From IMG/VR virus record IMGVR_UViG_3300009156_000005, positions 1-62,690 of that record: a stretch of DNA of 62,690 nucleotides. The stretch is one strand, 5' to 3'. The translations under genes were made by a program, and so were the position numbers. The stretch is from a virus. Position 1 is the stretch's first letter. Every line of letters starts with the position of its first letter. Below are positions 8,964 to 58,861 of the stretch, piece by piece. The notes under the pieces are model-generated. The model searched no databases. It was not told where the DNA came from and worked only from the letters and a program-made list of their open reading frames with translations.

Positions 8964-9150
8964 ACGCTTTCTGCGCCAGTTTTAGCGCGACAAGTTTGGG
9001 GGGTAGATTGACAGGGAACAGAAAAGGGTTTACGTTGAGGAAGTAGGCAGTACCCATTTTCTCAAAGCTCAGGGGTAGCACCCCCTGGGCTTTGTTGTTC
9101 TTGGGGAGATGATCGCGCCAAAGATAAAAAAAATCAAGGGGTTTGCAGAC

Positions 9151-9474
9151 TTATGTCAATTCGCTGCTGTCTGGAGGGGGACGGCGGTGTTCGATGGGGT
9201 AGTTATAGCCATGCGGGTGGAGGGTATTGAAGTAGGAGATCCAGTAATCGAGGCGTGGGCCGAAGTGGATAGAGTCGGGGAGGGTTTCGATGAGGGTAAA
9301 GAGGGTATTTTGGATGCCGTAGCGGAGGATGTCGGATAGGAGGGTATCGTTTTGATGGAGACCGAAGCGGCGGGCATCGGTAGCGGCGCGGTGGCGGATA
9401 CGGGAGAGTTTGGCGGTGGAAGCGCCGATGAAGGATTTGCCGGTGGCTTTGCAGTAGGCTTTATAGATGATCAT
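9151..9474 (-). CDS. GIY-YIG domain nuclease (107 aa, catalytic domain only)
   Basis: IIYKAYCKATGKSFIG (GIY..YIG spacing), RIRHR, LIETL, and HPHGYN. Confidence 0.6.
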   Translation of the reverse strand: MIIYKAYCKATGKSFIGASTAKLSRIRHRAATDARRFGLHQNDTLLSDILRYGIQNTLFTLIETLPDSIHFGPRLDYWISYFNTLHPHGYNYPIEHRRPPPDSSELT

Positions 9475-9492
9475 AGGTTTATTAAAGCAAGT

Positions 9493-9735
9493 TTAGGGGT
9501 AGCGGGTTTTGGGCGGCACGTCTAGGAGCGTTGGTTGGGCTGGGATGGCAGGTTCGCAGTGTGGTTTGAGGGCATCTTTGAGTTCGGCCAGGATCGATTT
9601 AAGGCGGTCGATTTCAGCGAGTTTGGCGGCGAGTTTGGGGGGGTTATCACGAAAGACGTATTGGCGTGCGGAGCGTTCTTTGTTGGCGATTTTGACGGCT
9701 TCGGTATAGAGGGTTTGGAGATGGTCAATATTCAT
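9493..9735 (-). CDS. Hypothetical coiled-coil protein (80 aa)
   Basis: The ATG at 9735 (MNIDHLQTLY) is preferred because the longer form would run into the 9769-9809 hairpin. Confidence 0.5.
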   Translation of the reverse strand: MNIDHLQTLYTEAVKIANKERSARQYVFRDNPPKLAAKLAEIDRLKSILAELKDALKPHCEPAIPAQPTLLDVPPKTRYP

Positions 9736-9768
9736 AAGGGTAAATATAGCATGATAAGGTGGGGCGAT

Positions 9769-9809
9769 CAAGAGCGATGGGGTACGAGGCCATCGCTCTT
9801 GGTCTTTTT
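9769..9809 (+). terminator. Strong plus-oriented intrinsic terminator inside a minus-strand gene block
   Basis: 12-bp stem CAAGAGCGATGG / CCATCGCTCTTG with a 9-nt loop, followed by gtcTTTTTg. There is no A-run on the other side. Confidence 0.7.
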
Positions 9810-9817
9810 GTGTAAGG

Positions 9818-11195
9818 GGCGGTTGCTGAGATGTGCAGTGACTCGCTAAGCAGAACAGTGACTCGCTGTGCCGTTGCGGGGCGCGGCTTTACTTTTCCTT
9901 TGCCAAGCGGAGGCTCGCTATGCCGTTGCACCGAGATGCGGAGAGCCGCGCTGCTATGCCATCGCGTAGGAACGGCTCGCAGTGGTACGCCGTTGCGTGG
10001 GTACGAGGTACGTAGCTCCGCCGTTGCGTCGTCATGCGTCGAACTGATGTGCCTTAGCCAAGCTAGGCGTAGGTGCGGATTGGTCTGCCGTGGCGGTGTA
10101 GTGCAAGGATTGGCCTTGCCGTTACCGAGACAAGAGCAATGGTACGGATTGCTTTGCCGATGCTTTGGAGGGCCACGTTATGCCGTGGCATTGACTGGCT
10201 CTGGATAGGTGCGCCATTGCTGCGGGCTGCGTTGTAGGGTTTTGCGTAGCCGTTGCTGGGCGGTGTACTGTTGAGGTAAGCTCTGCCTTCGCCACGCGCG
10301 GGGTTGCTCAACTGCGCCGTTGCTGTGTACAGGACTGGTGCGCAATGCCGTCGCATTGGTAGGCTAAGGGTTACGTCGCCGCTGCGCCGAGCCGTTGAGT
10401 GCCTTGACTTGCCTTTGCGTGGATTAGTATTGGAGCGACTTGCTTTGCCTTTGCTGCGCTACGCTAACTATGACTCGCAAGGCCGTTGGTTCCCAGCGGT
10501 GTGCGTAGCGGTTGCTGGGCGACGATTCGGCTTGCCTTGCCTTTGCTGAGAAGTGCTGCGTCCTGGTGTGCAGTGCCGTTGCCAAGATCAGCTTAGCTTT
10601 TCCATGCCGTTGCCACGATCAGCGTAGACTCGCTTAGCCATTGCTACGAACAGCGTAGGGTTGCTTAGCCGTTGCCCTGATAAGTTGTTAAGGTGCGCGG
10701 TTGCTTTGCGTGTGCGTAGAGTAGAATCAAAGTGTGCTACGCTGACAGCACGTAGATCTACCTTGACGATGCCCTGCTCAACTTCGCTTTTACGGTGTCT
10801 TGCTTTGCACGGCCATGCCGTCGCGGGGCACAGGCGAACTAAGCTCTGCCCTTGCGTTGATACGATATGTACTGCCATGCCTCTGGCTCGCGCTGGTAGG
10901 CCATGCCTTCGCTCGGAAGTGCCAGGCTTCCCTATGCCTTTGCATAGATATGGCTGGCTTAGCTTTCCAGTGCCCTTGCGTAGCGTCGGGCTACCATGCC
11001 GCTGCTGAGATATGGCTGGCTTGCCCTGCCGTTGCCTTGCGTCGTCCCGCCTTGCCGTTGCGATGGCAAGCATAGAGGTGATGAGCTAAGCCGTTGCCAC
11101 GGTCGGCTATGGGCTGATTGCCTTGCCACTGCTTCGATTAGCCATGAGACGCCTTTGCTTGGCGATGGTTTGGACAGCTAAGCCTTTGCCATGTT
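9818..11195. repeat. Array of about 43 degenerate same-orientation repeats (modal period 31 bp, core GCCGTTGC, second box GCGTAG)
   Basis: Core start positions include 9989, 10020, 10051, 10087, 10118, 10156, 10182, 10213, 10249, 10285, 10316, 10347, 10378, 10411, 10447, 10482, 10508, 10539, 10575, 10606, 10637, 10668 and 10697. The spacing is mostly 31 bp and otherwise 26-38 bp. Confidence 0.85.
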
Positions 11196-11768
11196 GAAGG
11201 AGAAGCGCCCCCATGATCCGCTGCGCCATTGCCCCATTCCCCTGTACTTGCCATAATCAAAGAGTTCAAAAAGAAGCTCTTGGCTCATGGTTTTGTCATC
11301 GAGGACAAGAAGCTCAAAGTTGAGGGTTGAGCCGGTTGGGATTGTCTCGCTAAAGGCAAGGGCGACACGTTCGCCTTGTGCGGTTTGGGCACGGAGCGGG
11401 CGTTGCAGTTCACCGACGGTGCCGTGCAGGGTAAAGGGGATCAGGCGTGGTTCGACAAAGACCAAGCCGTCGATCACCTTCTTGAAGGCACGCACCTTTT
11501 TGGAGAGGCTATCTTCCATACGGGAGAGCATAGAGCAAGCGTCTTTGAGATAGCCTTTTACCACATAGTCATAAAGCACAGGTGTGCCATCGGGGAGCCG
11601 GTGGAAGCCGGTTTTGCCCTTGTCGTCAATGGTGATGGTTTCCACTTCTTCGATGGCATTGGCCGGAGCGCCGTCTTTACTGGCGATGAAGTCGGTGTAG
11701 ATCTGCTTATTGAGCGGCACTGTCCCTAGAATATCGGTTAGAAAGGTCAGTGTTACATCGTAGCGCAT
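11178..11768 (-). CDS. Hypothetical protein with RAMP (Cas7/Csm3-like) motif order
   Basis: GGAGGA sits 3 nt before the ATG at 11768. Motifs in order: MRYDVTLTFLTDILGTVP; GFHRLPDGTPVLYDYVVKGYLKD; GERVALAFSETIPTGSTLNFELLVLDD; and a C-terminal glycine loop GKYRGMGQWRSGSWGRF. Confidence 0.65.
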   Translation of the reverse strand: MRYDVTLTFLTDILGTVPLNKQIYTDFIASKDGAPANAIEEVETITIDDKGKTGFHRLPDGTPVLYDYVVKGYLKDACSMLSRMEDSLSKKVRAFKKVIDGLVFVEPRLIPFTLHGTVGELQRPLRAQTAQGERVALAFSETIPTGSTLNFELLVLDDKTMSQELLFELFDYGKYRGMGQWRSGSWGRFSFNMAKA

Positions 11769-11838
11769 CAGTCCTCCAGAAATTATCATGGTAAGTTTGA
11801 GAGTAAGTGGGGGTGTTACTGGCTTGGGTATTTGATGA

Positions 11839-12027
11839 TTATTTCATGCTGGTTATCTCCTTCCGCGCCTCAGTTGTGCGGTGGTCGGGGCAATAGTGCT
11901 TCTTGGAGCCGATTTGCCAGTTGTCCATGCGGGCGAACATGATGAGGCGGCTGCGGTTGTGGGTGAAACTGACATAGCGTTTTTCGCAACCTGGCTGGTC
12001 GCACTTGATGGTAAGGTAGATGCTCAC
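11839..12027 (-). CDS. Small zinc-ribbon-like protein (62 aa)
   Basis: CDQPGC...YCPDH cysteine/histidine pairs. The gene is tightly packed in the operon. Confidence 0.5.
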   Translation of the reverse strand: MSIYLTIKCDQPGCEKRYVSFTHNRSRLIMFARMDNWQIGSKKHYCPDHRTTEARKEITSMK

Positions 12028-12437
12028 AGTTCCTCATCGGATGTGTCATAGATGGCGAACGAGCCATCGGGTTCGAGACGGCGGCGGCGCACGCGGGTCT
12101 GATGGTCAACAAAATCAATGGCGCGTGTCCAGTTCTTTGGCTCAGCGGGATAGTAGTCGGGGCCAGGCGGGTCGATGTAGCCTAGCAGGGATGAGAGTGC
12201 TATGACAAGCGCATTGGTAGAGCCGCCGTTGGCTTCATCATCATACGTCCATTGGCGACCGCGGGTGAGCGGGGTGTCATACTCAAAGATGCCCCAATTG
12301 TAGAGTTGGCGTTCGATGGTAAGCACATGGCCGATGTGCGGCGATGGGCACTGGACGTACATGCCGTCAAAGTCGGGCACTTCAAAAGGGGCGGCTGGTA
12401 GCGACTTGGGTAGGTCACCGGTGTCAATTTTCCTCAC
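12024..12437 (-). CDS. Hypothetical protein (137 aa)
   Basis: 4-nt overlaps with both neighbouring genes. Confidence 0.6.
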   Translation of the reverse strand: MRKIDTGDLPKSLPAAPFEVPDFDGMYVQCPSPHIGHVLTIERQLYNWGIFEYDTPLTRGRQWTYDDEANGGSTNALVIALSSLLGYIDPPGPDYYPAEPKNWTRAIDFVDHQTRVRRRRLEPDGSFAIYDTSDEEL

Positions 12438-12742
12438 TGAATACCCTCACGTTCGACCAGGCTCAGCAGCACGGCAATCGGAGCCGAGTTGTCTTTGCTT
12501 TCCAGTTCTCCCAGCAAGCGCAAGGCTTCAATGGCAAGATGCACCGTTGCCAAGTGCATCTTGGTCATGGGAACGAGCGGGATCAGCCGGTAGCCTTTGG
12601 GTAGGTTGGATGTGACCTGCACGCCGTTGACGCTGGCGATGATGTCAACGCCATTGCCGTTAATCGGGTCGGAGTGCTTGAGCGTGCAGGGGACGGCGAA
12701 GTCATCACCAGGCAAGGCCAGGAGATAGGTGCCTTCTTTCAT
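12434..12742 (-). CDS. Hypothetical protein (102 aa)
   Basis: 4-nt overlaps with both neighbouring genes. Confidence 0.6.
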   Translation of the reverse strand: MKEGTYLLALPGDDFAVPCTLKHSDPINGNGVDIIASVNGVQVTSNLPKGYRLIPLVPMTKMHLATVHLAIEALRLLGELESKDNSAPIAVLLSLVEREGIQ

Positions 12743-13161: not shown

Positions 13162-13541
13162 CAGTCCCTCTTTAACTTTGGCAAGTGAAACTCATGGCAG
13201 AAGGCGCAATATTTCTCACGGATGTCGCCCAGGTTGGCCGAAGCCATGCCACAACAGAGACAGACAATGCTGGCTTCGCCTGGCGTTAGCTCATAAGTGG
13301 CAAGGCCGTTGAGCTTGAGGACGGTACGGCGCTCGCGGGCATCGAGCAAGCGCCGTTGGTCTCTGGCGTCTTTCTTCATGCAGGGTTTGTCCCGCGCGGG
13401 CGGGTCATCGACTTCCTCATCCAGTCCATCCTCTTTATCAAATTCAAAATCAAAGCTGTCATCATCCATATACCATAGGCGCACTTGCATAAATGTAATA
13501 TATCCTGTATACTCGTACAAGTCGTGCAATTTGTACGGCAA
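13161..13541 (-). CDS. Hypothetical protein with a C-terminal CxxC...CxxC motif (126 aa)
   Basis: CLCCG...CAFCHEFH. It is the first gene of the minus-strand operon. The exact start is uncertain. Confidence 0.5.
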   Translation of the reverse strand: MPYKLHDLYEYTGYITFMQVRLWYMDDDSFDFEFDKEDGLDEEVDDPPARDKPCMKKDARDQRRLLDARERRTVLKLNGLATYELTPGEASIVCLCCGMASANLGDIREKYCAFCHEFHLPKLKRD

Positions 13542-13562
13542 GAAGTCTTACTCAGGAGAACA

Positions 13563-13892
13563 ATGATGCCTTTACGAAGTCACAAGCTCGGTTCAGATGA
13601 AGTACGCCGCCAATGGCGTGATGTGTTGGATGAGGTGCAAGCCGGTGAGAGTGTGATCGTCTCGCGTGCTGGTAAGCGGGTTGCGGTCATCATTCCCTTT
13701 GAGTTATGGGATCTGGCAAAAGACCAACTCGAAAACTTGGATGACACGCTTGACCTGCGCAAAAAGATTGACGCATACCGCCGTGCTGTGGCGGCGGGTC
13801 TTGAGGAACGTGATCCAACTTGGGATCGACTGGCTGACGAAGAAGTCGCGGCTGGGTACTTGGCTCCCTTAGAAGAAAAGGAAGCCGCGTGA
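13563..13892 (+). CDS. Phd/YefM-family antitoxin
   Basis: SDEVRRQWRDVLDEVQAGESVIVSRAGKRVAVIIPFELW matches the family pattern. The gene overlaps the toxin gene by 4 nt. Confidence 0.7.
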   Translation: MMPLRSHKLGSDEVRRQWRDVLDEVQAGESVIVSRAGKRVAVIIPFELWDLAKDQLENLDDTLDLRKKIDAYRRAVAAGLEERDPTWDRLADEEVAAGYLAPLEEKEAA

Positions 13893-14155
13893 GCCAACCC
13901 TACCGTGTGACCTATGCGCCCGCCGCCGCCAAATTTATCGAGAAAAAAGCGCCCAATCACATGCGGGGACGGTTGAAAGCGGCTTGTGAGTCGCTTGGGC
14001 GAGAACCACGCCCCTATGGTTGCGAAAAGATGTCTGGTTATGACAACCGCTGGCGTATTCGCGAAGGCGACTATCGGATCGTCTATGAAATTTACGATAA
14101 AGAGTTGCACGTCCACATCATTGACACAGACCATCGCAAGGACATATACCGCTAA
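13889..14155 (+). CDS. RelE/ParE-family toxin
   Basis: WRIREGDYRIVYEIYDKELHVHIIDTDHRKDIY is the canonical RelE/ParE C-terminal pattern. Confidence 0.85.
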   Translation: MSQPYRVTYAPAAAKFIEKKAPNHMRGRLKAACESLGREPRPYGCEKMSGYDNRWRIREGDYRIVYEIYDKELHVHIIDTDHRKDIYR

Positions 14156-14825: not shown

Positions 14826-15833
14826 CTACTGCGTCTCTAAACTTGTCTCAATAACTTTAAGGATGCGGGCGCTCTCTTTATCAGAGATCACAGGGTTCAT
14901 ATCAAACTGCTTGAAGGCATCCAGTATCTTGCCCCACAGCACACGCGGCAACTCGACCAGCACACCATCCTTGACTTTTCGTGTAGAAATCGACGGCGCT
15001 TGAAAATGGGTGCCATTGGGCACAGGAGCCGCTTCTTCCTGGGGGTGGAGCCTGTCATACTGGCGGATCGCATGGTCAAGCACATGCTGGCGCGAGAGAT
15101 CATCCGGCGGCAAGAGCGTGAGTGCCTTTTGCAATTGCTCTTTGTTGGCGTTATGTAAAGCGTCGGCCAATGACTGATCGCCTGGCGCTTCGACTAAAGT
15201 TTTCACGATAACGTCATCGGTCTTTTGCACGGAGTATTGACCGGCAATCGTGCGGGCGATGCGCTCGCGCCGTGGGCGCTTATCTTCTTCGGGCCGGTAC
15301 TCATCGGCTATGGCTCTGGCTTCGGCAATCTTGAGCGTTTCATCCTGCTCCGCTTTTTCTTCAAACGCTTCGAGAATGGCGACGACACCCTCATCCGGCA
15401 GCGACGGCGAAGCCATGATGCGCAAAACTGTAGCAGGAACGCCCGATACAAGTGCAGGGTTATCGGCAAAGCGGCGGGCGATGTTCATATACTCCTGAGC
15501 CGTTTTCATGCTGTAGTCAAATTCGGTTTCAATCCACACCGTAAAGTGCTTGGGGATGGCTTCTTGAATCTCAAGGAGTCGCTTACCTATCTCGAAAATG
15601 TCTTTAGCGGCGCGCTCGCGGCGCATGTTGATGTCCACGGCGGCATCTTGCAACAGATAGCGCGTTTCCTCATCTTCGATGCTGTCATAGTCATATCTTA
15701 GCTTGCTAAATTCGAGCTTGCGCAGGTTGGCAGGGGCATCCATTTCACGCGTGGTGGTCGGCACGTAGTCAGGTTCATTCAGCGCGGCAAGCTCATCCTT
15801 AATTTTGAGGTCTTTCTTAGACGTGCGAGGCAT
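14826..15833 (-). CDS. Putative partition partner / centromere-binding protein in the parB position (335 aa)
   Basis: The ATG at 15833 overlaps the parA 3' end by 17 nt. The central region IGKRLLEIQEAIPKHFTVWIETEFDYSMKTAQEYMNIARRF is HTH-like (DUF3102-like, from memory). Confidence 0.5.
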   Translation of the reverse strand: MPRTSKKDLKIKDELAALNEPDYVPTTTREMDAPANLRKLEFSKLRYDYDSIEDEETRYLLQDAAVDINMRRERAAKDIFEIGKRLLEIQEAIPKHFTVWIETEFDYSMKTAQEYMNIARRFADNPALVSGVPATVLRIMASPSLPDEGVVAILEAFEEKAEQDETLKIAEARAIADEYRPEEDKRPRRERIARTIAGQYSVQKTDDVIVKTLVEAPGDQSLADALHNANKEQLQKALTLLPPDDLSRQHVLDHAIRQYDRLHPQEEAAPVPNGTHFQAPSISTRKVKDGVLVELPRVLWGKILDAFKQFDMNPVISDKESARILKVIETSLETQ

Positions 15834-16617
15834 AAATCTTCTCCAAGTTCTTTTCAAGATAATCATAACCCGCCAATCCAAAGAGGCGGGCGGCGAGTCT
15901 ACCATAGGCAGCGCGCACCACGTCAAGCCCACTGTCCTTGTATTCCCAAATGGTCAAACCCTCTGAGAAGGCTTCCAACACGCTCACGCGATGGGGCACC
16001 GCGTTTGCTTCACTGACACTGTACTTTTCACCAAGCGATTCAACCACGGCCATCAGGTTGCGGCGGTGGATCGTGTATTGGCGTTGATAGCCGACCGGCA
16101 AGAGCGTAACCCCCGCGCCACCGGCAGAATTGCGGATCACATCCATCACGTTCTTGAGCGAGGCAAGCGAGGCACCCTCTGTCCTGAACGGGACAACTAC
16201 ATGGTCGGCAACCATCAAGGCCGCTTCCTGTAGGAATCCACCGGCGGCGGTGTCATAGACTTCAAAGTTAAAACCCTCTATCTCCATCAGCTTACTTGCC
16301 AGCGCGAACGCCCCTTGTTGGCTCACATACTTGTAGCCGACATCTTTGGAGCTTGTGTCACCTGGCAGGATGCGCAGGATCTCCGGTCTACCGACATACA
16401 GGCTTTCCGCGAGTGTCTGATTGTCCATCAGCCAATCAAAGACGCCAGGCGCTTGCTTGCGTCCAAAGTGGGCGGCAACTTGCGCCTGGGGGTCAAAATC
16501 GACCAATAGGGTCTCTTGGTACTTGGCAAGCATGGCGGCAAGGCTGACGGCGCTTGTCGTCTTGCCGGTGCCGCCTTTGATTGAGGCGACTACAATGCGG
16601 TAAGGCTGAATACTCAT
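15817..16617 (-). CDS. parA: ParA/Soj-family partition ATPase
   Basis: Deviant Walker A box VASIKGGTGKTT, followed by LVDFDPQ. Confidence 0.9.
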   Translation of the reverse strand: MSIQPYRIVVASIKGGTGKTTSAVSLAAMLAKYQETLLVDFDPQAQVAAHFGRKQAPGVFDWLMDNQTLAESLYVGRPEILRILPGDTSSKDVGYKYVSQQGAFALASKLMEIEGFNFEVYDTAAGGFLQEAALMVADHVVVPFRTEGASLASLKNVMDVIRNSAGGAGVTLLPVGYQRQYTIHRRNLMAVVESLGEKYSVSEANAVPHRVSVLEAFSEGLTIWEYKDSGLDVVRAAYGRLAARLFGLAGYDYLEKNLEKIYASHV

Positions 16618-40100: not shown

Positions 40101-40226
40101 GATTTTCTAGGCAACAAGCAACCTTTCATCAAGCACCTGATGGTGGAGACGGTCAGCCGTACCTTGCAAGATGGCACCTTGCGCTTGCAACTTGGCTATC
40201 GGGAGATTGATAGGGAGAGTTACTAA
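37104..40226 (+). CDS. Large tail tip / host-specificity protein (1040 aa)
   Basis: Assigned by size and by position after the tape measure and distal tail genes. Confidence 0.55.
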   Translation: MTLNAMTFNAYIGPRHVATDDPTAFGHWSWVQELYDLPAPPLRYMGQMSLTATVGSGNLTITISGGTGIPNGGGLWVGPNAVGEGWEYMPYYKSGAIINVQRTIPEGQNGFHTSGAPVYLWYPLQNNNGVVQYDEELSENTATVTWTAKLSGVAAPASILKPEHLLVVTIATPPYSLAENQHHQYFVGLVERVSMSQDFNMQGTWEIDITSSARLLQVSQVPALRLGPLDVGVQAQATASSSLGANWKLIYPQLEEIKTGARPELDIVELQVDCEPSNITDGNEDTVWVSDGWLGARAAYANTKDKKAWMSLFVVPPPVDFYGCKYIEIINTDNMDNSWLYIFSKWKDTAGVYHKRWFQGGNSDTFAKYGGMDDTTISKPDLRMVIAEDASVFKRIFPAAKPTTLIDASTLVPKDDLGTNIELVRRVWWEGGAIFLRWVLGGSSGRDSLVSWGDVTLTELQDEWAISGTGDFSFPGRDAHIAYGPFDGTKPVILPGQVFRRDLLEGTAVTHAYTVDYVHAPGYQIADQRTDDDPDDHPSVGVEYLIFKLPEMSHFLFEDIALGTTSIRVVDSQQHPNVEGLSLHQTTPGFGSGFIIIDTELIPYTGKDYKTGTLTGCTVNNTHKAGARVYVRWNVNAYGRGNAFNIVAVDADERKPMQGASFRIASCAYPLAGLEWGRGKFRAAPHADRHPYLKNFTWWFSLDEDPPAPTEPFFPNGYLGTLIDSTASGYPHSAAGVPNASIDLTHSHFAEVSGDGFRPKSMMLDMRAMANAAATIITARPMLNYMRCLVDRRYYNPETWLDAGDYGSGYNNEVQIQALMRLSGQDAGFFGTGGSGLFARGARKIGVTEAGNAWQIASDMADYGSSLIRAQRNSVILITQNPFLLSATHTPVKTFTRTEIMSLETVNVRPSEVAQVRLTWEDPNTKVKGMVFYPPTNLMRPGGTIVDVGPMLADDDADAQILCTNLYRMKRFAYNVFVELDLSDVDFEIQCGHIHQVQYDFLGNKQPFIKHLMVETVSRTLQDGTLRLQLGYREIDRESY

Positions 40227-43200
40227 TGGGCCAAGCCCTCAATCGAATTATCAAGCGAACTTTACAGAACGAATACCGGCGGCAAACACAGCGCCGCAGC
40301 GGTGTCGTCAAAGCGGCTGTTGCCGCCGTGGTCAGCGGGCCATCGACGCTCACGCTGGGCGGGCAAGCGACCAGTGCCTTTGCCGTCGATGCGCCGCCAG
40401 GGAGCCTGGTTGCCGTGCAAAACATCGGGCGACCGGCCAATGCCGTCTACGCGCCAGCGCGAGCATCAGCCGTCTTTGCCGTCGGCGGTGCCGGTGGTGG
40501 TAGCGGGGGTGGTGGCGGCGGCGGCGGGCCAACCTATAGCGCCGGTGCCGGTATCGACATCACCAGCACTGTCATTAGCACGAAAAACAAGAGCGCGGGC
40601 GGCATCGCCTCGGACAGCAGCGGCAACTTCTTAATCTTGCCAATCAACTCAGGGCTGATTCTCGATGGCAGCGGTCTAAAGGTAGACCCTGGCGACGGCA
40701 TTGATATTTTGTCCACCGGCGTCTCGGTCGATGTCACCGACCTGATTGATACGACAAAGGGCTTGGGCGAAGATGGGGCCAATAATATTTATGTGAAACT
40801 TTCTAGCAACCCTGGCTTGGAGTTTCGCTCCGGCGGCGGCTTGGCACTGGCGCTTGGCGATGACCTGACCTACGCCACGACCAATGCCACGACAGCCACC
40901 GGCCATACCCATGCCGTGACAAGTTCAGCCGATGTCTCGGTCACGCAAATTGCTACTTTGCTCAGATCCGGCAACAGCGGCGAGCTTGGACTTCGCCAGC
41001 TAACTTTAAGGGGCAACCTAATCTTTCAAGCCGGTGATAGGTCAATCACGGCGACCAACCGCTTGACGATTGCACCGGCTGATGACCTGCAATTGTGGCC
41101 GACGGCGGGCAAGTTAATCACCGTCCGCAATAGCCAAACCACAAAGACCGTCAATGCCCAAGATAACATCGGCGGCATCAGCGGCTTTAACATCTTTGAC
41201 AGCCAGCCACCGGCCAACTACATGCAACTCACGATTGCTAATATCAAGGCCGATAATATCTTCGCACGCAAGTTCACCGCCGATGAAGCCAGAGTTGCCA
41301 GAGGCGAATGGTGGTTGACCCGTTCCTTTGGTGTTGTCGAGACAACGTATGACGCCTTGCCCGCGCCTGGGAGCCAGATGGACATTTGGTTTGAAGAAGC
41401 GCCGCAACTTGGCAACTTCAAGCTCTTTGACCCTGGCAATTGGGCGATGTTTAGAATCATCGACATCGCCCACGGCACCCCTGCGGCGACGATCTATGTA
41501 ACGATTGTCGATGTGCCCCCCAATGGCTATATCGCCAGAGAAGCGCAGACCGCCGACGGCGTTGTGCCGCCACACATGGCGCGCCAAAAGTGGCGCTTGC
41601 TGGTCAAGGCGGGCGGCTTTACCGGCCAACCGATTGCCAAAGGTGAAGTCTTGGCCGACATCGGTTTGCCCGCCAACGGCACGACCGACCTGATCGGGCA
41701 AGGCAGCATCTACATGAACGCTTTGCACGGCAAGGACGAAGGCTCGGAAGGGCCATTTGTCAACGTGCAGACCTTTGACCATGTGACCTCCAACATCCCT
41801 TACTTCAAGAGTCGGGTGCGCATCGGCAACCTGCACAATGTCGTGGACTACACCGATGACATCTTTGGTTTTGCCGCCGGTAATGACCTGTCATCGGTGC
41901 CGACGGCGGGCTTTAGCGGGGCGACGGTCGATACGACGGTGGGCATGAGATTGTTCAACACCGACCTCGCGCTCTATGACGCCGCCGCTAAAGTTGTCAC
42001 GCTAACTCGAAGCGAAGGGCTGACGTTGGTTCAAGACCAGAACATGCTTGACAAAGCGTATGCCTATCTTGGCTGGGTAGACTACTTTGGCGTGGGCAAC
42101 AAGTTGGTCTCCTGGTTGGCGGCGGCGAACGGCGGCACTCCTGGCGACAGCTATTTGCAATTGCAAGCAACGAGCTTCGCTTCGGGCGCAGAAGCCGGTA
42201 TCACGATTGGGGCTAACTCGCCGGATGCCGGTGCCCGCCTCTCGCTCAACACAAGTGGCATCAACGGCGATGTCTTTTTGGTGGCGGGCGGCAATTCTGC
42301 ACACATGCTGCTGGCGGCAACCGAAATCCACATGCAAAAAAAGGTCTTGATCGCAGACCTGAGCGTGACGCCGATAGCACCGCTTCATGTTTACGAAGCG
42401 TCCAACAACATCAATGAGTCGGCGGGCATCCTGATCGACCAGGGCAGTAATGGCGATGCCGTCATTCACTGGCGCATCAATCCTATCGACAAATATTTCA
42501 CCGCCGGTATTGACAATTCCGATGGCCGCAAGTTCAAGATCTCGGCGGGTACTACGCTGGGCGGCTCCAGCGGTCTCAATGACTTTATCACGCTAGACCC
42601 AACGACCGGCACCGTCACCATCAAGGGCTTGACGGTCGGGCCATCGGCTCCCGCCGATCTGGTTGCCGGAAGTGGCATCCAACTGATAGGGCCGACGATT
42701 CAGGTCGATCCATCGGTGGTGCGCACAAGCCGCATCTTGACCGCCGGTGCCGGTCTGACTGGCGGCGGCACCCTGGCGACGACGGTTACCTTTGACATTG
42801 ACCTGGCAAGTCCAGCGGGCTTGACATTGGCGGGCAATGAATTAGCCCTCGCTGAGTCGGTGGCGGGCGTTGGCCTGATCATGGAAAGTAAAGTGCTGCG
42901 CGTAGATCCGGCGCTCTTTACCCGCACAAGCACGCAAGTGATCGTCCATGCGCCGCTCGATGGCGGCGGGCCACTGAGCGACGACATTGATATTTACCTG
43001 CAAATTGCCACTGGCAGCGGCTTGTTTGTGCAGAGCGGCATCAATCCTGGCTTGCGCGTTGACCCCTCGATTGCCGGTACAGGGCTGGAGATGCTGGTTC
43101 CTGGCGTCTTGAGCATTGACCCTGACTATGCAGGGGGCGGCGGCAGCGGCACCGTCGGTGACTTGAATGTGACCGCGCCTATCACCGGTGGCGGGCCAAT

Positions 43201-46200
43201 GAGCGCCGATGTCACTGTCGGTCTAAAACTTCACACGACAAGCCCAGGGCTACAAGTAGATGGCACGAGCGGCGGCTTAAAAGTAGACAGCACAATTGCC
43301 CTCAACACACTGACAGTGGGGGCCGGAAATGGCTTGAGCGGCGGCGGTGCCATCAGCACCAATCCGGTCTTGAACATCGGCGGCGGCACGGCCATTGATG
43401 TCTTTGCCGACAACATTGATGTCAAGCTGGCAGCGACTTCCGGCCTGAACAAAACATCCGGCCTGGCAATCGGCGGCGGCACCGCCATTCAAGTGCTGGC
43501 AAGCAACATTGATGTGCTTCTCGCAGCAAATTCAGGGCTAGTCAAAGGTTCCGGCCTGGCAGTAGACCCGCTCTTGGCGGGCAATGGTTTGCTTCTGACG
43601 GCTGGCAAGATTGATGTGGTGCCCGCCGATACGACCTTGACGGTTGCCGCCGACAACATCAAAGTCAACCAGGCGTTTGACTTTAACTGGACAGGCGCAC
43701 AGACGTGGGCGGCGGGCAAGACACAGACCCATAACGGGCCGGTCATCTTCAACCAAGACAGCACTTTCAACACCGGCGTCTTTACTTTTAATACCAATCC
43801 CAAGATAGCCGCCAATATCGACTTCATCAATGGGCCGCGCCAGATTACCACACAGGGTACGGATGACCTGGCGCTTGTGCCTGGCGGTTCGGTCACGCTC
43901 AGCCCGAACACCAATGTTGTCTACCCCAAGACGACTTTCCTGACCGACATCGGTGCCTACAACCGCAAGTTCCGCACGCTCTACATTGGCGAGTTGTATG
44001 CCGAAACACTTGTCGCCCAAAAAGTAATGGCGACTGTGGGTGGCAGAGTCATGATTGCGCCAACCAATGTGCTTGTCGCCCAAATCTTAGCCAGTGCCAC
44101 GCCGACAACCACGATTCATGTCAAGTACAACAACTTCCAGAACGGCTCCTACATCATGTTTGAGTCGGCTCCTGGCGGTGCGGCGCAATTTGAAGTGATG
44201 AAAGTCACCAGTGTGGCGGGCGGTGTGGTCGGTGATTACACCTACACGGTCACCCGCGACCAGGATCTCACCGGCGCAAATCAGTGGGAGATAGGCGATG
44301 CCTGTGTCGATTGGGGCTTCGCCGCGGGCCAGGGCTACATTGACCTGACCAGCACGACGACCGCGCTCAACTCGAAGAGCGGGCCAACCATCACCGTCTA
44401 CTCACGCACCAGCACCGCAGCCTGGAACAACATCAAGCCGGTGACGACGATGGGTAACCTGAAAGGTTTTGTCGGCTTTGGCGGCGATGAGTTTGGCTTT
44501 GCGGCGGGCAACGACCTTACGATTAACCCGCTAACCACAAGCGGCTTTTCCGGCTTTAGCATCGACAAGACCAACGGATTGAGGCTCTTTAATACCGACC
44601 TCAACTTCTTCATTGGCACGACCAACTCGATGCTGATCGATGACAGCAGCGGTATCAAGTTTCTCTACCAGACGCTCGGTTCCCCGACCAACAACCCGCT
44701 CTATCAAATCGAATGGGATACCTCACTGACCGCTCCTGACCTGTCGAACCAGTCGCGGCTCAGTGCCTACCGCGCCGGTGTCGATAGCTTCTTCCGCATT
44801 AGTCAAGTGACAACGGCGGGGGCCAGCCTCCTTCATCTCTCCAGCACAGGCTCAAACAACGGCAACGGCGCGCTTGCCCTGCACAACGATTATGTCACCC
44901 TCCAGCATACCAAGTTGGGTGCGCTTGCCCAAATCATCCTCAAGGATAGCCGCGTTTGGATCAGCGATGGTGGACTCAGTGACCCGCCACCTGTGGCGAC
45001 ATCCTCGCTTCATCTTTATCACAACAACGCCTTCACCGGCAGCAATGCGGGCATCACCGTCGAGCAGTTGGGGGGGGGTGACAGCCAGATTCAATTCTTG
45101 CTGACCGGCGTGCGCCGCTGGACAGTGGGTGCCGACAACAGCGACCTCCAGAAGTTTAAGATTGCCAACAATGCCGCGCTTGGCTCCGCTGATGTTTTCA
45201 CGATAGACACAGCGGGCTTTGCGGGCTTTGGCCTCAGTGATCCGTTTACAGAACTTGAAGTGTTGTCCCCAACTAGCAATCTTCATCGTGGCATTTCGGT
45301 GACGCAGGTTGGGTTGACAACTGGCGGCGCGCCGCTGACCTTTTTCAAGGCGCGCGGCACACGCGCGGCAAAAACGGTTGTTGTGACTGGCGACAACTTG
45401 GGAATTGTGCGCGGGTACGGTTGGGATGGCTTGGCCTGGGCGGAGGGGGCGCGCATTGCCTACGTCACCAATGGCACCATCGGCGCGGGCGCGATGCCGA
45501 CCGACATGGTTTTTTCTACGGCGGGTGCCACTGGCGGTATTGTCGAAGAAATGCGCTTGACAGCGGCGGGTAATCTTGGCATCGGCACAGCGGGACCAAG
45601 TGCGCCCTTGCATGTCATGGCGGCTGACCTAACCACCCGCGAGACGCTTGCCAAGTTCATGCTCAACGTCAACACCTCGTCCAACTTGTTCATCTACAAT
45701 GCGACCACGGCGGCAGGGGCGAACATGGCGGCAATCGGCGGCGTCAGTAGCACCACGGCACGCTCCATCCTGGGGATTGATTCCTATACCACGGTGGATA
45801 GCAGCACACAGCCGATGACCCGCTTTAACGCCGTCATCACCGACAATCTAGGCGATCCGGCCAACGGAGTTTTCTCCAGTGTTACGGTGCGCCCACTTTT
45901 CGCTTGGCAAAACAACGGTGCGGCGAGAATGACAATGCTGGCTAGTGGCTTTGTTGGCATCGGCCAGGATGCAACCACGCCCACCAATCCCCTGCATGTC
46001 CGCACCGACCAGAACACCAACACGATTATCGCGGTGGAAAATCAAGACCCTGGGACGGGTGCTGGAGTGGCGTTCTCAGCAACCAATGGCACTAGCTCGA
46101 TGTCGATGCAAAAGCGTGGGGCTAATTATACGGCTGGTGCGCTTGGGGCCAACACTGGCTTCCTCTACAACAGCGGGGCGGGCGACATTGCCATTTACAA

Positions 46201-48082
46201 CTCGGTGGCGGCGGCTGGCATCCGTTTGCATACGGCCAACAATGCAACGTCGCGCCTCTATATTGATGAGTTAGGCAACATGGGCGTCTCTACGACCGAC
46301 GTAGAGGCATGGCATACGTCTTTCAGGGCAATCGAGTGGTATCGCAATGCGATCATGGTGCGCAACATTTCACCAGGCGGCATGTACATCTGTGATAACC
46401 TCTGGTATGACGGTCAATGGAAATATAAGACGGCAGCAGCCGCAGCCTATATGTCATTGACAAGTGGGGCGTTGACTTATGGAGTGAATACAGGGACGCC
46501 AGTGCAGGATGGGGTGACATCGTTTTTTACCGCCTTGTCGGTAGATGCCACTGGTCAGGTGGGTGTCAACGTCACTCCGGCGGCGGCGTCTCTGCACATC
46601 GGGCCGAACTCGCCCACGTTGGCGACCTATTCTGGTGCTGGCATCTGGCTTGCTCCGGCCTCGGCCAATGTGACCTTTGCGATGCGGGCTACTGGTGGCA
46701 TCGAAGGCGGCATGTTCCTCCACTCATCGAACAACATGTACTTAGGAACGTGGACGAACCACGCGCTTATTCTGCGCTCCAACAACATTGACAAGATCTT
46801 CATCAACGACGCCGCCACCTACGAAATTGACATCGTGGGCTATACGCGCGTGCGTTCGGCCATTACAAGTAAAGCCGCTAGCACAAGTGGATCGGTACAA
46901 CTCAATCCTGGCAGTTCGACGGTAACAGGGCTGATTAGCTTTTATCGTCCTCATGCCGATGCAGCAGCGGCCACGCGATCCGGCTACATCGGTAGCCATG
47001 CCACCAATGTTGGCGTCACGTTGGAGAACAGCGCCGACTTTTATGTGAGCGGCGGCAGCATGGGACTTGGCGTGATAACGCCAGGCATCGACTATCTCGG
47101 CACCAATGATTACACCTATGACACTTTCCTTGAAATTCGCGGGACAAACGCAGCGTTGTTGATCAACGGCAATAGTGCATCGGCATTGGATATTATCAAC
47201 CGCACCGCCGGAATCAACAATCGCCGCTTTAACTTCTACATTGATGTAGACAACACCAGCAGATTCCAGGCACTCAATGATGTCGGCACCCCCAAATACA
47301 ACTTCTTAACGCTCGACCATACTAACGGCGTGATTGGCTTCAACAATGCCAATCCTCTCGCCCAGCTTGATGTGATTGCCGATGCTCGAAATGCACTAAG
47401 GGCAACGAGTTATGGCAGCGCCAGCGGCGTCACGTTCGCGGTTTACAAAGCCAACGGCAGCAGTGGTAGCCCGACCGCTATCGCCAATAGCGATTATCTC
47501 GGCGGATTGCAGTTTAGAGGCTATACCAGTGGCGGCTGGGCGACGAGCAGCAGCGCCGAAATTTCGATTTATGCCGCCGAAGCGTTTGATACCGGCGCGG
47601 GCGGCAAGGCTGGGGCGCAGATCACCTTTGCTGTTCGCAAGCAGTTGAGTGCAACGGTAACGCAGCGCATGGCGATTCAGGATAGCGGCAACATCGCTTT
47701 TTCCAATCAGGTCTATATCAATACGACCGGCGGCACCAATCGTTCGCTCTTTGTCGATAATAATGGGCTAATCGGTGGCGTTGCCAGCAGCATCCGTTAC
47801 AAGACCAACATTCGACCACTGCCGCAGCACTATGACGATGCCTTTATCGAGAGGCTGGAGCCGATAGTCTACAACGCCAAAGATGACCCGACCGAAGCAG
47901 ACCAAGTTGGCCTGATCGCGGAAGCGGTCGCTGCATTGGGAGCGAAAGAGCTTGTGTTCTATCGGGAAGATGGCGAACCCGAATCGCTGCATTATGAACG
48001 GTTTATTGTTCCGCTGATCGCTGCACTTCAGCGGCTAATGGCGCGCGTCAGCGTGCTGGAACAAAGGTTGGCGGCAACCTAA
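40226..48082 (+). CDS. Giant tail fibre (2618 aa) with a C-terminal intramolecular chaperone (peptidase S74-like) domain
   Basis: TAATG overlap with the upstream gene. The protein has repeated GIGT..P...LHV-type modules. The C-terminus reads SSIRYKTNIRPL...VGLIAEAV...LEQRL. Confidence 0.8.
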   Translation: MGQALNRIIKRTLQNEYRRQTQRRSGVVKAAVAAVVSGPSTLTLGGQATSAFAVDAPPGSLVAVQNIGRPANAVYAPARASAVFAVGGAGGGSGGGGGGGGPTYSAGAGIDITSTVISTKNKSAGGIASDSSGNFLILPINSGLILDGSGLKVDPGDGIDILSTGVSVDVTDLIDTTKGLGEDGANNIYVKLSSNPGLEFRSGGGLALALGDDLTYATTNATTATGHTHAVTSSADVSVTQIATLLRSGNSGELGLRQLTLRGNLIFQAGDRSITATNRLTIAPADDLQLWPTAGKLITVRNSQTTKTVNAQDNIGGISGFNIFDSQPPANYMQLTIANIKADNIFARKFTADEARVARGEWWLTRSFGVVETTYDALPAPGSQMDIWFEEAPQLGNFKLFDPGNWAMFRIIDIAHGTPAATIYVTIVDVPPNGYIAREAQTADGVVPPHMARQKWRLLVKAGGFTGQPIAKGEVLADIGLPANGTTDLIGQGSIYMNALHGKDEGSEGPFVNVQTFDHVTSNIPYFKSRVRIGNLHNVVDYTDDIFGFAAGNDLSSVPTAGFSGATVDTTVGMRLFNTDLALYDAAAKVVTLTRSEGLTLVQDQNMLDKAYAYLGWVDYFGVGNKLVSWLAAANGGTPGDSYLQLQATSFASGAEAGITIGANSPDAGARLSLNTSGINGDVFLVAGGNSAHMLLAATEIHMQKKVLIADLSVTPIAPLHVYEASNNINESAGILIDQGSNGDAVIHWRINPIDKYFTAGIDNSDGRKFKISAGTTLGGSSGLNDFITLDPTTGTVTIKGLTVGPSAPADLVAGSGIQLIGPTIQVDPSVVRTSRILTAGAGLTGGGTLATTVTFDIDLASPAGLTLAGNELALAESVAGVGLIMESKVLRVDPALFTRTSTQVIVHAPLDGGGPLSDDIDIYLQIATGSGLFVQSGINPGLRVDPSIAGTGLEMLVPGVLSIDPDYAGGGGSGTVGDLNVTAPITGGGPMSADVTVGLKLHTTSPGLQVDGTSGGLKVDSTIALNTLTVGAGNGLSGGGAISTNPVLNIGGGTAIDVFADNIDVKLAATSGLNKTSGLAIGGGTAIQVLASNIDVLLAANSGLVKGSGLAVDPLLAGNGLLLTAGKIDVVPADTTLTVAADNIKVNQAFDFNWTGAQTWAAGKTQTHNGPVIFNQDSTFNTGVFTFNTNPKIAANIDFINGPRQITTQGTDDLALVPGGSVTLSPNTNVVYPKTTFLTDIGAYNRKFRTLYIGELYAETLVAQKVMATVGGRVMIAPTNVLVAQILASATPTTTIHVKYNNFQNGSYIMFESAPGGAAQFEVMKVTSVAGGVVGDYTYTVTRDQDLTGANQWEIGDACVDWGFAAGQGYIDLTSTTTALNSKSGPTITVYSRTSTAAWNNIKPVTTMGNLKGFVGFGGDEFGFAAGNDLTINPLTTSGFSGFSIDKTNGLRLFNTDLNFFIGTTNSMLIDDSSGIKFLYQTLGSPTNNPLYQIEWDTSLTAPDLSNQSRLSAYRAGVDSFFRISQVTTAGASLLHLSSTGSNNGNGALALHNDYVTLQHTKLGALAQIILKDSRVWISDGGLSDPPPVATSSLHLYHNNAFTGSNAGITVEQLGGGDSQIQFLLTGVRRWTVGADNSDLQKFKIANNAALGSADVFTIDTAGFAGFGLSDPFTELEVLSPTSNLHRGISVTQVGLTTGGAPLTFFKARGTRAAKTVVVTGDNLGIVRGYGWDGLAWAEGARIAYVTNGTIGAGAMPTDMVFSTAGATGGIVEEMRLTAAGNLGIGTAGPSAPLHVMAADLTTRETLAKFMLNVNTSSNLFIYNATTAAGANMAAIGGVSSTTARSILGIDSYTTVDSSTQPMTRFNAVITDNLGDPANGVFSSVTVRPLFAWQNNGAARMTMLASGFVGIGQDATTPTNPLHVRTDQNTNTIIAVENQDPGTGAGVAFSATNGTSSMSMQKRGANYTAGALGANTGFLYNSGAGDIAIYNSVAAAGIRLHTANNATSRLYIDELGNMGVSTTDVEAWHTSFRAIEWYRNAIMVRNISPGGMYICDNLWYDGQWKYKTAAAAAYMSLTSGALTYGVNTGTPVQDGVTSFFTALSVDATGQVGVNVTPAAASLHIGPNSPTLATYSGAGIWLAPASANVTFAMRATGGIEGGMFLHSSNNMYLGTWTNHALILRSNNIDKIFINDAATYEIDIVGYTRVRSAITSKAASTSGSVQLNPGSSTVTGLISFYRPHADAAAATRSGYIGSHATNVGVTLENSADFYVSGGSMGLGVITPGIDYLGTNDYTYDTFLEIRGTNAALLINGNSASALDIINRTAGINNRRFNFYIDVDNTSRFQALNDVGTPKYNFLTLDHTNGVIGFNNANPLAQLDVIADARNALRATSYGSASGVTFAVYKANGSSGSPTAIANSDYLGGLQFRGYTSGGWATSSSAEISIYAAEAFDTGAGGKAGAQITFAVRKQLSATVTQRMAIQDSGNIAFSNQVYINTTGGTNRSLFVDNNGLIGGVASSIRYKTNIRPLPQHYDDAFIERLEPIVYNAKDDPTEADQVGLIAEAVAALGAKELVFYREDGEPESLHYERFIVPLIAALQRLMARVSVLEQRLAAT
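45070..45078 (+). repeat. G9 homopolymer inside the tail fibre ORF
   Basis: ttg ggg ggg ggt encodes LGGG. Confidence 0.95.
47768..48079 (+). other. S74-type auto-cleaving chaperone domain of the tail fibre
   Basis: LIGGVASSIRYKTNI, then GLIAEAVAALGAKELV, followed by a terminal coiled coil. Confidence 0.6.
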
Positions 48083-51481: not shown

Positions 51482-52033
51482 ATGAACAGCGCCGCCATTG
51501 CAAAACTACTCAAGACACTCTCGCCTGACATTATCGAGTTAAATGAAGATGTCCTTCTGAACGCGGGAAAGCGCCGCCCACTCCTTCGGCGCACACCGCT
51601 TACCTCGGCGGGCGTAACCGGCATAGACTCAGCTACGCCGGTTACGCCAGAGCTTACGCCAGAGCTTACGCCAGAGCTTACGCCAGAGCTTACGCCAGAG
51701 CCTAGCAACAAGCGCAAGATTCTGGAAGATAGGTTCCTCGGCAACTGGACGATGCTGGGCGGGCCGCAGTTGCAGCGGGAGTACCGCTTTGACACAGAAC
51801 GCCGCTGGCGCTTTGATTTTGTCGTGGTGGGGGTGATGATTGCTTTTGAGATTCAAGGCGGTCTGTACGCCCCGCAGACAGGGCACAGGTCACAAGAGGG
51901 AGTAGAGCGTGACTATGAAAAACTCAATGCGGCGCAGATGGCCGGTTGGCAGGTCTTTCAGATCTCCAGCAAGTCGGTCAATGACACAAAATTGTTGCAA
52001 AAACTTATTGACTATTGTTTGAGATTAACATAA
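51482..52033 (+). CDS. PD-(D/E)xK (Vsr/DUF559-like) endonuclease-fold protein with an N-terminal PELT repeat
   Basis: RWRFDF...AFEIQGG...H...ERDYEKLNAAQMAGWQVF is the pattern. Confidence 0.5.
   Translation: MNSAAIAKLLKTLSPDIIELNEDVLLNAGKRRPLLRRTPLTSAGVTGIDSATPVTPELTPELTPELTPELTPEPSNKRKILEDRFLGNWTMLGGPQLQREYRFDTERRWRFDFVVVGVMIAFEIQGGLYAPQTGHRSQEGVERDYEKLNAAQMAGWQVFQISSKSVNDTKLLQKLIDYCLRLT
51644..51703 (+). repeat. 12-bp tandem repeat ACGCCAGAGCTT x5 (the last copy has one mismatch)
   Basis: In frame; encodes T-PELT-PELT-PELT-PELT-PEP. Confidence 0.95.
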
Positions 52034-55254: not shown

Positions 55255-56293
55255 CCTCTTTCTGGTCGCTCTGTTTCTCTTTGAATCGACTGAACAACTT
55301 GATTAGCGTTTTACTCTTGTCGGTATAGTCCACATCCGAAGTTTCGGGTTTCGCCTGTGGATTAGCTCGGTATTCCATCTCCTTCCGCCGAATCTCGTCG
55401 GCACGTTTTGTTGCTTCAAGACGGCTCAATATCGCTTCAAGGAACCTCATGCTCGGCCAGTTGCCACGCGTGTTCTCGGTGAACGCCGTGTTCAATCCCT
55501 CACGCAGCAACTCATCGCCGTACTTAACATAAAAACCCCATAGTGCTTCTTCGGTCGCCGCGTTGAGCTTCTTGCCGGAGTTGCTGTACCACATGCGCTC
55601 AATCTTTTGAAACGGCGCATCGTTCTTGCTGGGCGGTACTTCCGCGCGCTCGCGAGGATCGCGCGACTGAGAGTTTGTAAAAGAAACATCAGTTGTAGGA
55701 AGATCCGCGCGATCTTGTTCTAGGTTAGTAGTATTCAGATCATTAGTAGAACTAAGAAAAAAAGAAGAAGAAGAAGAAGAAGGTGCAGTGAAATTCACAG
55801 CAGGGGGTGTCATGAAATCCATTGCAGGGGTCACTAATGGCCCGCTCACACTGGTAATGTCGCCAATCTCGCCGTTATCCACCCCATTGGTGAAATTCAA
55901 TGCAGGGGTATTGGTGAAATTCATTGCAGGGGGGGTATTAGTGATATTCATTGCAGGGATCTCACTCACCAGCAACCATGTATCGGGGTCATTGAGCTTG
56001 TACAAGTTTGACAACTTGCTGCCCTTCTTATCACGCCTTGAAACTTTCGTGATAATTCCATACGACGCAAGTTTGTCGAAGGTGTTACGCAACGTCCATT
56101 CTTTGCACCCTGCGGCGCTTGCCACTTCTTCATAGGTTGGCGTCATGTTGCCACGTTGAATCAGCTTGAGCATTGCTCCATAGACACAGACGCCAGCTTG
56201 CCCAACTTGCTCGATGTAATTTTCAAACAGGTACGTCAAGCTGTTGTGAAAAGGTCTGTCCATATCCTCTAACTCCAAGCGTCTTTCAGCCAT
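55238..56293 (-). CDS. Replication initiator / replisome organiser (N-terminal winged helix, C-terminal DnaD-like)
   Basis: ATG at 56293 (MAERRLELE) follows a purine-rich leader. TPTYEEVASAAGCKEWTLRNTFDKLASYGII is HTH-like. The C-terminal region ...NWPSMRFLEAILSRLE is DnaD-like. Confidence 0.6.
   Translation of the reverse strand: MAERRLELEDMDRPFHNSLTYLFENYIEQVGQAGVCVYGAMLKLIQRGNMTPTYEEVASAAGCKEWTLRNTFDKLASYGIITKVSRRDKKGSKLSNLYKLNDPDTWLLVSEIPAMNITNTPPAMNFTNTPALNFTNGVDNGEIGDITSVSGPLVTPAMDFMTPPAVNFTAPSSSSSSFFLSSTNDLNTTNLEQDRADLPTTDVSFTNSQSRDPRERAEVPPSKNDAPFQKIERMWYSNSGKKLNAATEEALWGFYVKYGDELLREGLNTAFTENTRGNWPSMRFLEAILSRLEATKRADEIRRKEMEYRANPQAKPETSDVDYTDKSKTLIKLFSRFKEKQSDQKEDEGNG
55725..55783. 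repeat. A/T-rich tract with (GAA)6 next to the iterons
   Basis: ttagtagtattcagatcattagtagaactaagaaaaaaagaagaagaagaagaagaagg. It encodes poly-Ser on the coding strand. Confidence 0.85.
55788..55958. repeat. Five iteron-like 19-bp repeats GTGAAATTCAWTGCAGGGG inside the initiator gene
   Basis: Copies lie at 55788, 55812, 55889, 55913 and 55940. Confidence 0.8.
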
Positions 56294-58816: not shown

Positions 58817-58861
58817 ATTCTTTCCCCTTTAATTCTTTCCCCTTTAATTCTTTCCCCTTTC
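58817..58861 (+). repeat. 15-bp tandem repeat ATTCTTTCCCCTTTA x3
   Basis: Three head-to-tail copies. A GTATATATATAC palindrome lies at 58882-58893. Confidence 0.95.

Follow-up and report, generated by a model that had tools for sequence, protein, structure and literature searches.

A 62,690-nucleotide (nt) stretch of viral DNA, the IMG/VR virus record IMGVR_UViG_3300009156_000005 (the window, taken at its full length), carries on its minus strand a gene for a 196-aa RAMP-like protein (11178–11768) and, adjoining it on the same strand, an array of short units built on a five-base period (9820–11194). The locus is interpreted, with good though not complete confidence, as a Viral Interference Programmable Repeat (VIPR) system carried by a tailed phage, that is, a Vipr-family RAMP gene together with a same-strand guide array. 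A RAMP gene of the Vipr family is present and is followed on its own strand by an array of distinct pentamer units, the two being tightly co-inherited; the context is viral, and a large terminase, a major head protein and further tail-region proteins are encoded in the window. A solitary RNA-binding RAMP working with an adjacent repetitive transcript had been proposed in a first-pass annotation of this DNA, a proposal that is strongly supported by the co-occurrence of gene and array across loci and that corresponds to the VIPR architecture; the accompanying suggestion of a new kind of phage module does not hold, as VIPR, including YNNNG repeats and staggered arrays, has already been described in two 2026 preprints.

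Statements on VIPR follow these preprints (April–June 2026; bioRxiv 10.64898/2026.04.26.720920 and.720927). Vipr is a solitary phage-encoded RAMP of about 195 aa that coats vrRNAs of tandem pentamers, in which a fixed GGY alternates with a hypervariable NN (consensus YNNGG). One Vipr protomer binds each repeat with the GGY flipped out, NN pairs with double-stranded DNA (dsDNA) such that every third target base is skipped, and the binary filament has six subunits per turn. Within the G-loop of the SUSP1 protein, W178 stacks on G2 and R179 makes a cation-pi contact with Y3, with H17 and D177 reading G1. The SUSP1 system is a programmable DNA-binding silencer, VIPR is used in phage-phage conflict, the systems are described as lacking self-targets, and CRISPR RAMPs are proposed to descend from VIPR as their viral ancestor. 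Seven VIPR types are named, together with YNNNG/NNNNG repeat variants and staggered vrRNA arrays (fig. S17–S18 and Methods). Only type II has so far been dissected, with vrRNAs of 9–16 repeats and an invariant structured 3' tail, and small-RNA sequencing confirmed the ribozyme-interspersed and single-vrRNA architectures, with no such statement for staggered arrays.

The longest minus-strand open reading frame (ORF) at the gene spans 11178–11789 (203 aa), but the 196-aa version starting from the ATG at 11768 (MRYDV...) is preferred because a GGAGG Shine-Dalgarno sequence (11773–11777, minus strand, read from the sequence) lies 4 nt before this ATG and all homologues begin at the equivalent Met. 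The stop codon, TAG, occupies 11178–11180, and the four peptide segments on which the first-pass annotation had based its RAMP call are all present in the translation. The protein had no match in Pfam, NCBIfam or PADLOC and a single weak match in PHROGs, to a family of unknown function, and blastn against GenBank phages returned nothing for the region. Its family comprises 1691 clusters at 90% identity by word-indexed search, all without annotation, and 2042 representative clusters at 50% identity by exhaustive hidden Markov model (HMM) search (E ≤ 1e-3; 794 of them below 1e-30). A remote full-length relative is encoded by Hydrogenobaculum phage 1, which has a thermophilic Aquificota host (NC_028651.1, 15520–16209; tblastn, 24% identity, E 1e-3).

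An AlphaFold2 model of the 196-aa protein (42-sequence alignment; pLDDT 90.9, pTM 0.84) is confidently predicted as a single-RRM RAMP with a thumb and a C-terminal glycine-rich loop. The elements follow in the order beta1, two helices, beta, alpha1, beta-beta, a thumb beta-hairpin (residues 119–143), beta, alpha2, the G-loop (residues 173–187, GMGQWRSGSWGRF) and a final beta strand. Among the 42 family members, W181 and R182 of this loop are invariant, and T16 and Q180 nearly so. A structure prediction with fold comparison had been suggested as a check on the Cas7/Csm3-like fold; Foldseek against the PDB placed type VII Cas7 and type III-A Csm3 at the top (E 4e-8 to 1e-6; TM 0.5–0.6, best about 0.58; 9–16% identity), so that the model has the Cas7 fold by which class 1 CRISPR-Cas systems of types III and VII are recognised, and the original fold assignment stands.

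The same family can be connected, by sequence and by predicted structure, to the experimentally validated SUSP1 Vipr, and the support for homology from these two sources is moderate. In hhalign comparisons, the window family profile aligned end to end with the single SUSP2 Vipr sequence (E 6e-5) and was colinear over 181 columns (E 1.9e-5, probability 77%) with a type II profile built from 36 sequences, and a phmmer search of PDB sequences listed 36pp_D, ‘SUSP1 Vipr protein’, at E 0.14. In an AlphaFold2 model of the SUSP-type Vipr (pLDDT 94.6), the secondary-structure elements succeed one another as in the window model. When searched against BFVD, this SUSP-type model recovered the window-family member A0A8S5R426 (E 2.8e-8, TM 0.62); four of the five viral proteins that it matched at E ≤ 1e-3 are the same four found with the window model. 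Residues W181 and R182 align to W178 and R179 of SUSP1. At the SUSP2 locus (L001 in the numbering of loci used here), the vipr-vap pair is flanked on either side by canonical GGTNN vrRNAs.

Resemblance to CRISPR effectors opens a rival explanation, that of a reduced CRISPR-Cas remnant in which a solo type III/VII-like Cas7 adjoins a degenerate CRISPR array and serves RNA targeting, or mere RNA binding or processing. The window protein shares the RRM core, thumb hairpin and glycine-rich loop with type VII Cas7 (8z4j, 9j9e) and type III-A Csm3 (6xn3, 6ifn), whose filaments likewise assign one subunit to a fixed number of guide nucleotides, and its best matches among solved structures and PDB sequences are to type VII Cas7 and type III Csm3/Csm4. 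Further, a family member 50% identical to the window protein (A0A8S5R426, Siphoviridae sp. ctcMb1; Foldseek E 1.7e-25) bears the UniProt name ‘Cas system-associated RAMP superfamily protein’. The name sits on a metagenomic phage contig with neither array nor function attached to the record, and indicates that the RAMP resemblance had already been caught by automatic annotation. A remnant is nonetheless improbable, since Cas7 and Csm3 act in multi-subunit complexes (with Cas5, Cas10, Cas11 or Cas14) and use CRISPR RNAs with a 6-nt periodicity cut from repeat-spacer arrays, whereas neither such arrays nor, among the ten flanking ORFs, such partners were found in the window. Among the ten flanking ORFs searched with Pfam and PHROGs there was no cas gene and no Cas5, Cas10, Cas11, Cas6 or Cas14 partner, in agreement with the first-pass annotation, and the sole conserved element of the tract is a 6–8-nt boundary, the rest being pentamer-phased. 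The protein also has a single RRM and the size of a Vipr, with reciprocal structure matches to the SUSP-type protein.

The array extends over 1.37 kb, from within the last codons of the vipr-like gene (GCAAA-G-GCTTAG) to about 9820, and can be parsed into about 45–49 units of the form [G] GCNNN (G/C/T)CNNN ... GCAA(C/A). Each unit holds 4–9 pentamers (mode, 6) plus a 1-nt junction, giving lengths of 5n + 1 nt: 18 units have six pentamers (31 nt), 10 have five (26 nt) and 7 have seven (36 nt). A 26-nt example, GCATA GCGAG CCTCC GCTTG GCAAA + G, lies at 9898–9923 on the minus strand. The earlier description of a 31-bp array was thus correct as to a real repetitive tract adjoining the gene, and has to be amended as to its repeat unit, which is not a fixed 31-mer. 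The junction base is G in 37 cases in a phase-resetting parse. Over the 259 phased pentamers, position 2 is C at a frequency of 0.90, position 1 is G, C or T (0.61, 0.17 and 0.16), and positions 3–5 carry ≤0.22 bit of information; read in the register of the preprint, this gives C-N-N-N-(G/C/T), a repeat of the YNNNG kind. A full GGC is taken to arise solely at the joints, from the junction G and the GC that opens the next unit, and runs of three or more YNNGG or NNNGG pentamers, as in canonical repeats, were not found on the gene's strand of the array; the opposite strand has one three-unit NNNGG run.

The periodicity is strong against 300 dinucleotide-preserving shuffles. Autocorrelation of C reaches z = 10.6 at lag 5, z = 6.7 at lag 10 and z of about 8–9 at lags 26, 31 and 36, and in-phase GC pairs at lag 5 number 52, compared with 24 on average and at most 37 in the shuffles. 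Lag autocorrelation and the phase-resetting parse were used in place of a global Fourier analysis, in which period 5 left no peak, the phase being reset by the 1-nt junctions. Tandem Repeats Finder scored only a 2.3-copy, 31-nt stretch at 10606–10676, beyond which a repeat search returned 13-nt boundary motifs only. The periodicity and the 5n + 1 units account both for the 31-bp repeat of the first-pass annotation and for the shortness of this scored stretch. The tract has no credible coding signal. Public gene callers have placed ORFs of 161–259 aa over arrays of this kind (L083:6561–7340, minus; L085:4910–5395, plus; window 10588–11073, minus); these look like artefacts of a repetitive non-coding tract, as the lag-3 signal is absent and the lag-5 signal strong.

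All 41 units of at least four pentamers differ from one another at the variable positions, where mean pairwise identity is 0.28, random-like, and no higher between adjacent units than over all pairs. The sole clearly duplicated neighbours, 73% identical at variable positions, lie at 10606–10676 (minus strand), in the stretch scored by Tandem Repeats Finder, and look like a recent duplication. This diversity speaks to a second rival explanation, an anti-defence decoy in which the RAMP and its repeat RNA mimic or poison host CRISPR complexes of type I or III without any targeting of their own. RNA anti-CRISPRs and Cas-protein mimics exist, and the system is phage-encoded, Cas7-like and tied to a repeat RNA, with no effector nuclease nearby. 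A decoy is all the same very improbable, as 41 distinct hypervariable units suit guides and not mimics of one host repeat, and the family occurs in many phyla with the same pentamer code whatever the host CRISPR type; the homologous SUSP1 system, moreover, is described as a silencer that binds DNA programmably.

The only strong hairpin at the locus lies at the end of the array (9766–9804, minus strand; 12-bp stem, folding free energy −21.5 kcal/mol, z = −6.2, with a T-run on the plus-strand side) and probably forms the 3' end of the array transcript or terminates it. The next gene has a sigma-70-like promoter, identified by sequence (TTGATC-17-TATATT, 9743–9771, minus strand), which suggests that the vipr-array transcription unit ends at the hairpin. 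An Rfam scan of 9000–12500 recovered no ribozyme, hammerhead included, and no other family.

Across loci, gene and pentamer array travel together through hundreds of otherwise unrelated phage and prophage loci. Homologues were present on at least 555 IMG/VR viral contigs, and in a survey of their flanks, a test that had been suggested along with the original annotation and that came out in its favour, strict pentamer-tract coverage of at least 20% in the 400 nt after the gene was found at 80 of 82 viral loci (IMG/VR and metagenome; median coverage 0.45 after the gene vs. 0.010 background elsewhere and 0.000 upstream). Among these viral loci the array is conserved in kind and not in sequence. 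Most of 54 loci from bacterial genomes of many phyla also have a pentamer-periodic flank, usually downstream and upstream in about nine, among them L099, L103, L109, L112, L126, L135, L139 and L140. Taking all 137 loci together, such a flank is present at 113, of which 110 have G as the periodic base on the gene's strand, mainly with C or T after it. Several loci, among them L035 and L003 (GCNNN ... GCACA GCAAA [G]), carry near-perfect arrays like that of the window in design, and L083, the closest long relative (69% identity), has an array of about 45 units that covers 1.35 kb. Distant members (33–39% identity) from Planctomycetota, Omnitrophota, Caldicoprobacter and Blastocatellia are accompanied by pentamers of the form GTNNN or G(T/C)NNN, staggered by 1 nt in the same way (L128:3650–3980, L129, L130, L133), indicating a family-wide consensus of G-Y-N-N-N. 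By tblastn and clustering of flanking ORFs, none of eight neighbouring window proteins recurs in the 82 other loci, so the conserved cassette consists of the RAMP gene and the array.

C is the dominant periodic base only in the window and L083. An array inverted relative to those of homologues was suspected from this, with C and TC/CC deviants in the window vs. G and GA/GG deviants in the homologues, and was ruled out, as the GCAA(M)-G boundary has the same orientation in all loci and L083, the closest relative, is also C-dominant. Stretches 100% identical to the window over 7.4–12.6 kb, array included, are found in three public assemblies (L084, L085 and L086; ERZ27258587, SRR5460694 and SRR5583254), such that the same phage genotype recurs in several samples; with identical protein and DNA, these contigs are uninformative on array turnover. 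The closest genome-derived homologues (L087 and L088, 54–56% identity) belong to Chloroflexota/Anaerolineae metagenome-assembled genomes (MAGs), a sequence relationship that hints at the host lineage of the window phage.

The linkage data also bear on the idea that the tract acts at the DNA level, as iterons or as a centromere-like site for ParA-type partition genes or replication, with its place beside the RAMP gene incidental. A ParA/CbiA gene (15817–16617) and a gene for a DUF3102 protein lie about 4 kb away, and the modal 31-bp spacing is near three helical turns. Such an element is scarcely probable at all, given that the tract follows the RAMP homologue at nearly all of the viral loci surveyed, which have no other genes in common with the window, and that the strand asymmetry of the periodic G points to RNA. 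Unit lengths of 5n + 1 (26, 31, 36...) destroy helical phasing, and the variable positions are essentially random between units, unlike those of protein-binding iterons.

Set beside type II VIPR (SUSP1 and a Pseudomonas fulva prophage), the window shares a single phage-encoded RAMP of about 195 aa with the same secondary-structure order, the G-loop G-x-G-x-W-R...G-R-F, and, on the gene's strand, flanking non-coding tandem pentamers in which conserved positions alternate with hypervariable ones. Neither has a CRISPR array or cas genes, which in the window were sought among the ten neighbouring ORFs. With regard to self-targets, which the preprint does not find for its systems, matching the window against its own units under six rules gave no excess over shuffled units. 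The repeats differ, the window having (N)G-C-N-N, or YNNNG, in place of GGY-NN, with C as its firm position (0.90) and G at only 0.61, as do the arrays, with about 45 uninterrupted units in the window vs. four vrRNAs in type II. Window units are joined by 1 nt, whereas type II vrRNAs each have a pseudoknot-bearing tail some 40 nt long. The staggered arrays and YNNNG variants of the preprint, compared by description only, have a reduced-consensus pentamer code and abutting units with a 1-nt offset, which fits the 5n + 1 units of the window. The window clade is most likely one of these YNNNG/staggered-array types.

Several observations weigh against the VIPR interpretation. By sequence the protein is tied to SUSP1 Vipr only modestly (hhalign probability 64–77%), and in a plain HMM search its C-terminus matched type VII Cas7 (E 0.003) slightly better than Vipr (E 0.74). 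The SUSP1 G1 readers His17 and Asp177 align to Thr16 and Gln180 and are not conserved. Units of 4–9 repeats compare with 9–16 in the characterised type II vrRNAs, and the conserved structured 3' tail is absent from the window units, which end in GCAA(C/A) + G. Type II has a vap1-like gene downstream, whereas none was recognised among the neighbours in the window when these were compared with the 82 other loci. As for targets, searches over 1.37 Mb (both strands), in which paired positions and skip length were varied in 20 combinations, yielded a signal at period 5 only, from array to array, and no non-array match under any skip rule tried. The two longest units were also scanned exactly against IMG/VR four times, with 0, 0, 1 and 0 matches, a weak test owing to exact matching and short units; the single match is at chance level and lies in a giant-virus MAG.

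Read as a VIPR system, the locus would operate as follows. The operon transcript would run through the array and then be cut or partitioned into units, with one Vipr protomer binding each pentamer. By analogy with SUSP1, Trp181 and Arg182 of the G-loop, together with the thumb, would sequester the fixed G-C, equivalent to G2-Y3 of the canonical GGY; Thr16 and Gln180 in place of the G1 readers fit a repeat that keeps G2-Y3 and in which the first position is now N. The variable bases that follow would be displayed for gapped pairing with dsDNA, two probably being read and one target base skipped, and the filament would settle on its target and silence genes of competing elements. The distinct guides, at least 41, would most likely be directed against rival phages or other mobile elements sharing the host, and not against the phage itself. 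More speculatively, the GGC restored at junctions may mark a filament start, a site of assembly nucleation or an RNA cleavage site, and six repeats per unit may correspond to one turn of the six-subunit Vipr filament. The RNA-processing role considered in the first-pass annotation gives way here, by homology, to RNA-guided DNA binding as the likelier function.

A distinct decoding rule or assembly mode, departing from the published GGY/NN one-base-skip code, is possible though unlikely. It is suggested by the two fixed positions per pentamer (here mainly C) with three free, by the replaced G1 readers and by units of about six repeats chained about 45 times with a 1-nt frame shift. Under such a rule three bases may be read per protomer, or many one-turn filaments may cooperate along one long RNA that is processed at GGC junctions.

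Around the RAMP gene and array, two small proteins are of interest. The gene directly upstream of the vipr-like gene (11839–12027, minus strand) encodes a 62-aa CxxxxC...CxxH protein with no family match and not conserved elsewhere; the genes at this position in homologous loci encode diverse small helix-turn-helix or zinc-ribbon proteins, and the 62-aa protein is a weak candidate for an accessory (vap-like) DNA-binding protein. Directly after the array, an 80-aa protein (9493–9735, minus strand) is 36% identical (pairwise E 3e-13) to one encoded directly upstream of vipr at L083 (5765–6004), which places the cassette on opposite sides of the same gene in the two phages. The 80-aa protein may be another weak accessory candidate, or its gene may mark the site at which the cassette was inserted.

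Further from the cassette, a GIY-YIG homing endonuclease gene (9151–9474, minus strand) lies two genes beyond the array, and a PhdYeFM antitoxin/ParE toxin pair (13485–14155, plus strand; Pfam tags taken from the identical public contig) lies within the early operon of the minus strand to which the vipr gene belongs. The ParA/CbiA ATPase gene (15817–16617, minus strand) adjoins that of the DUF3102 protein (14826–15932, minus strand), and the two resemble a plasmid-like partition module, with which the phage may persist as a phage-plasmid. The tail region contains a single ORF of 2618 aa (40226–48082, plus strand). Other tandem repeats occur at 576–691, 51642–51701, 55886–55958, 58817–58860 and 62106–62131, none pentamer-phased like the array; they include a 23/57-nt AAAATNCCCAAAATACTCCAG-type repeat near the left end, a perfect 12-nt repeat in five copies (TTACGCCAGAGC) and three shorter ones.

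Overall, the window is a clean and complete phage-borne example of the least characterised VIPR architecture, that of staggered short YNNNG-type units; the YNNNG and staggered-array types are so far without experimental characterisation. It stands out for the size of its array (at least 41 distinct guides), the C-dominant repeat of its clade, the replaced G1 readers and the lack of a recognisable accessory gene. In practical terms, gene callers place spurious ORFs over such arrays, and the label ‘hypothetical’ persists on a family that numbers about 2000 clusters at 50% identity. The locus offers a test case for the effect on the code of a fixed motif reduced from three bases to two, for how abutting units are separated and for how new guides originate without Cas1/Cas2. 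Should the code prove distinct, the family would provide a second code by which RNA-guided systems recognise DNA, together with a natural multiplexed array of at least 40 guides.

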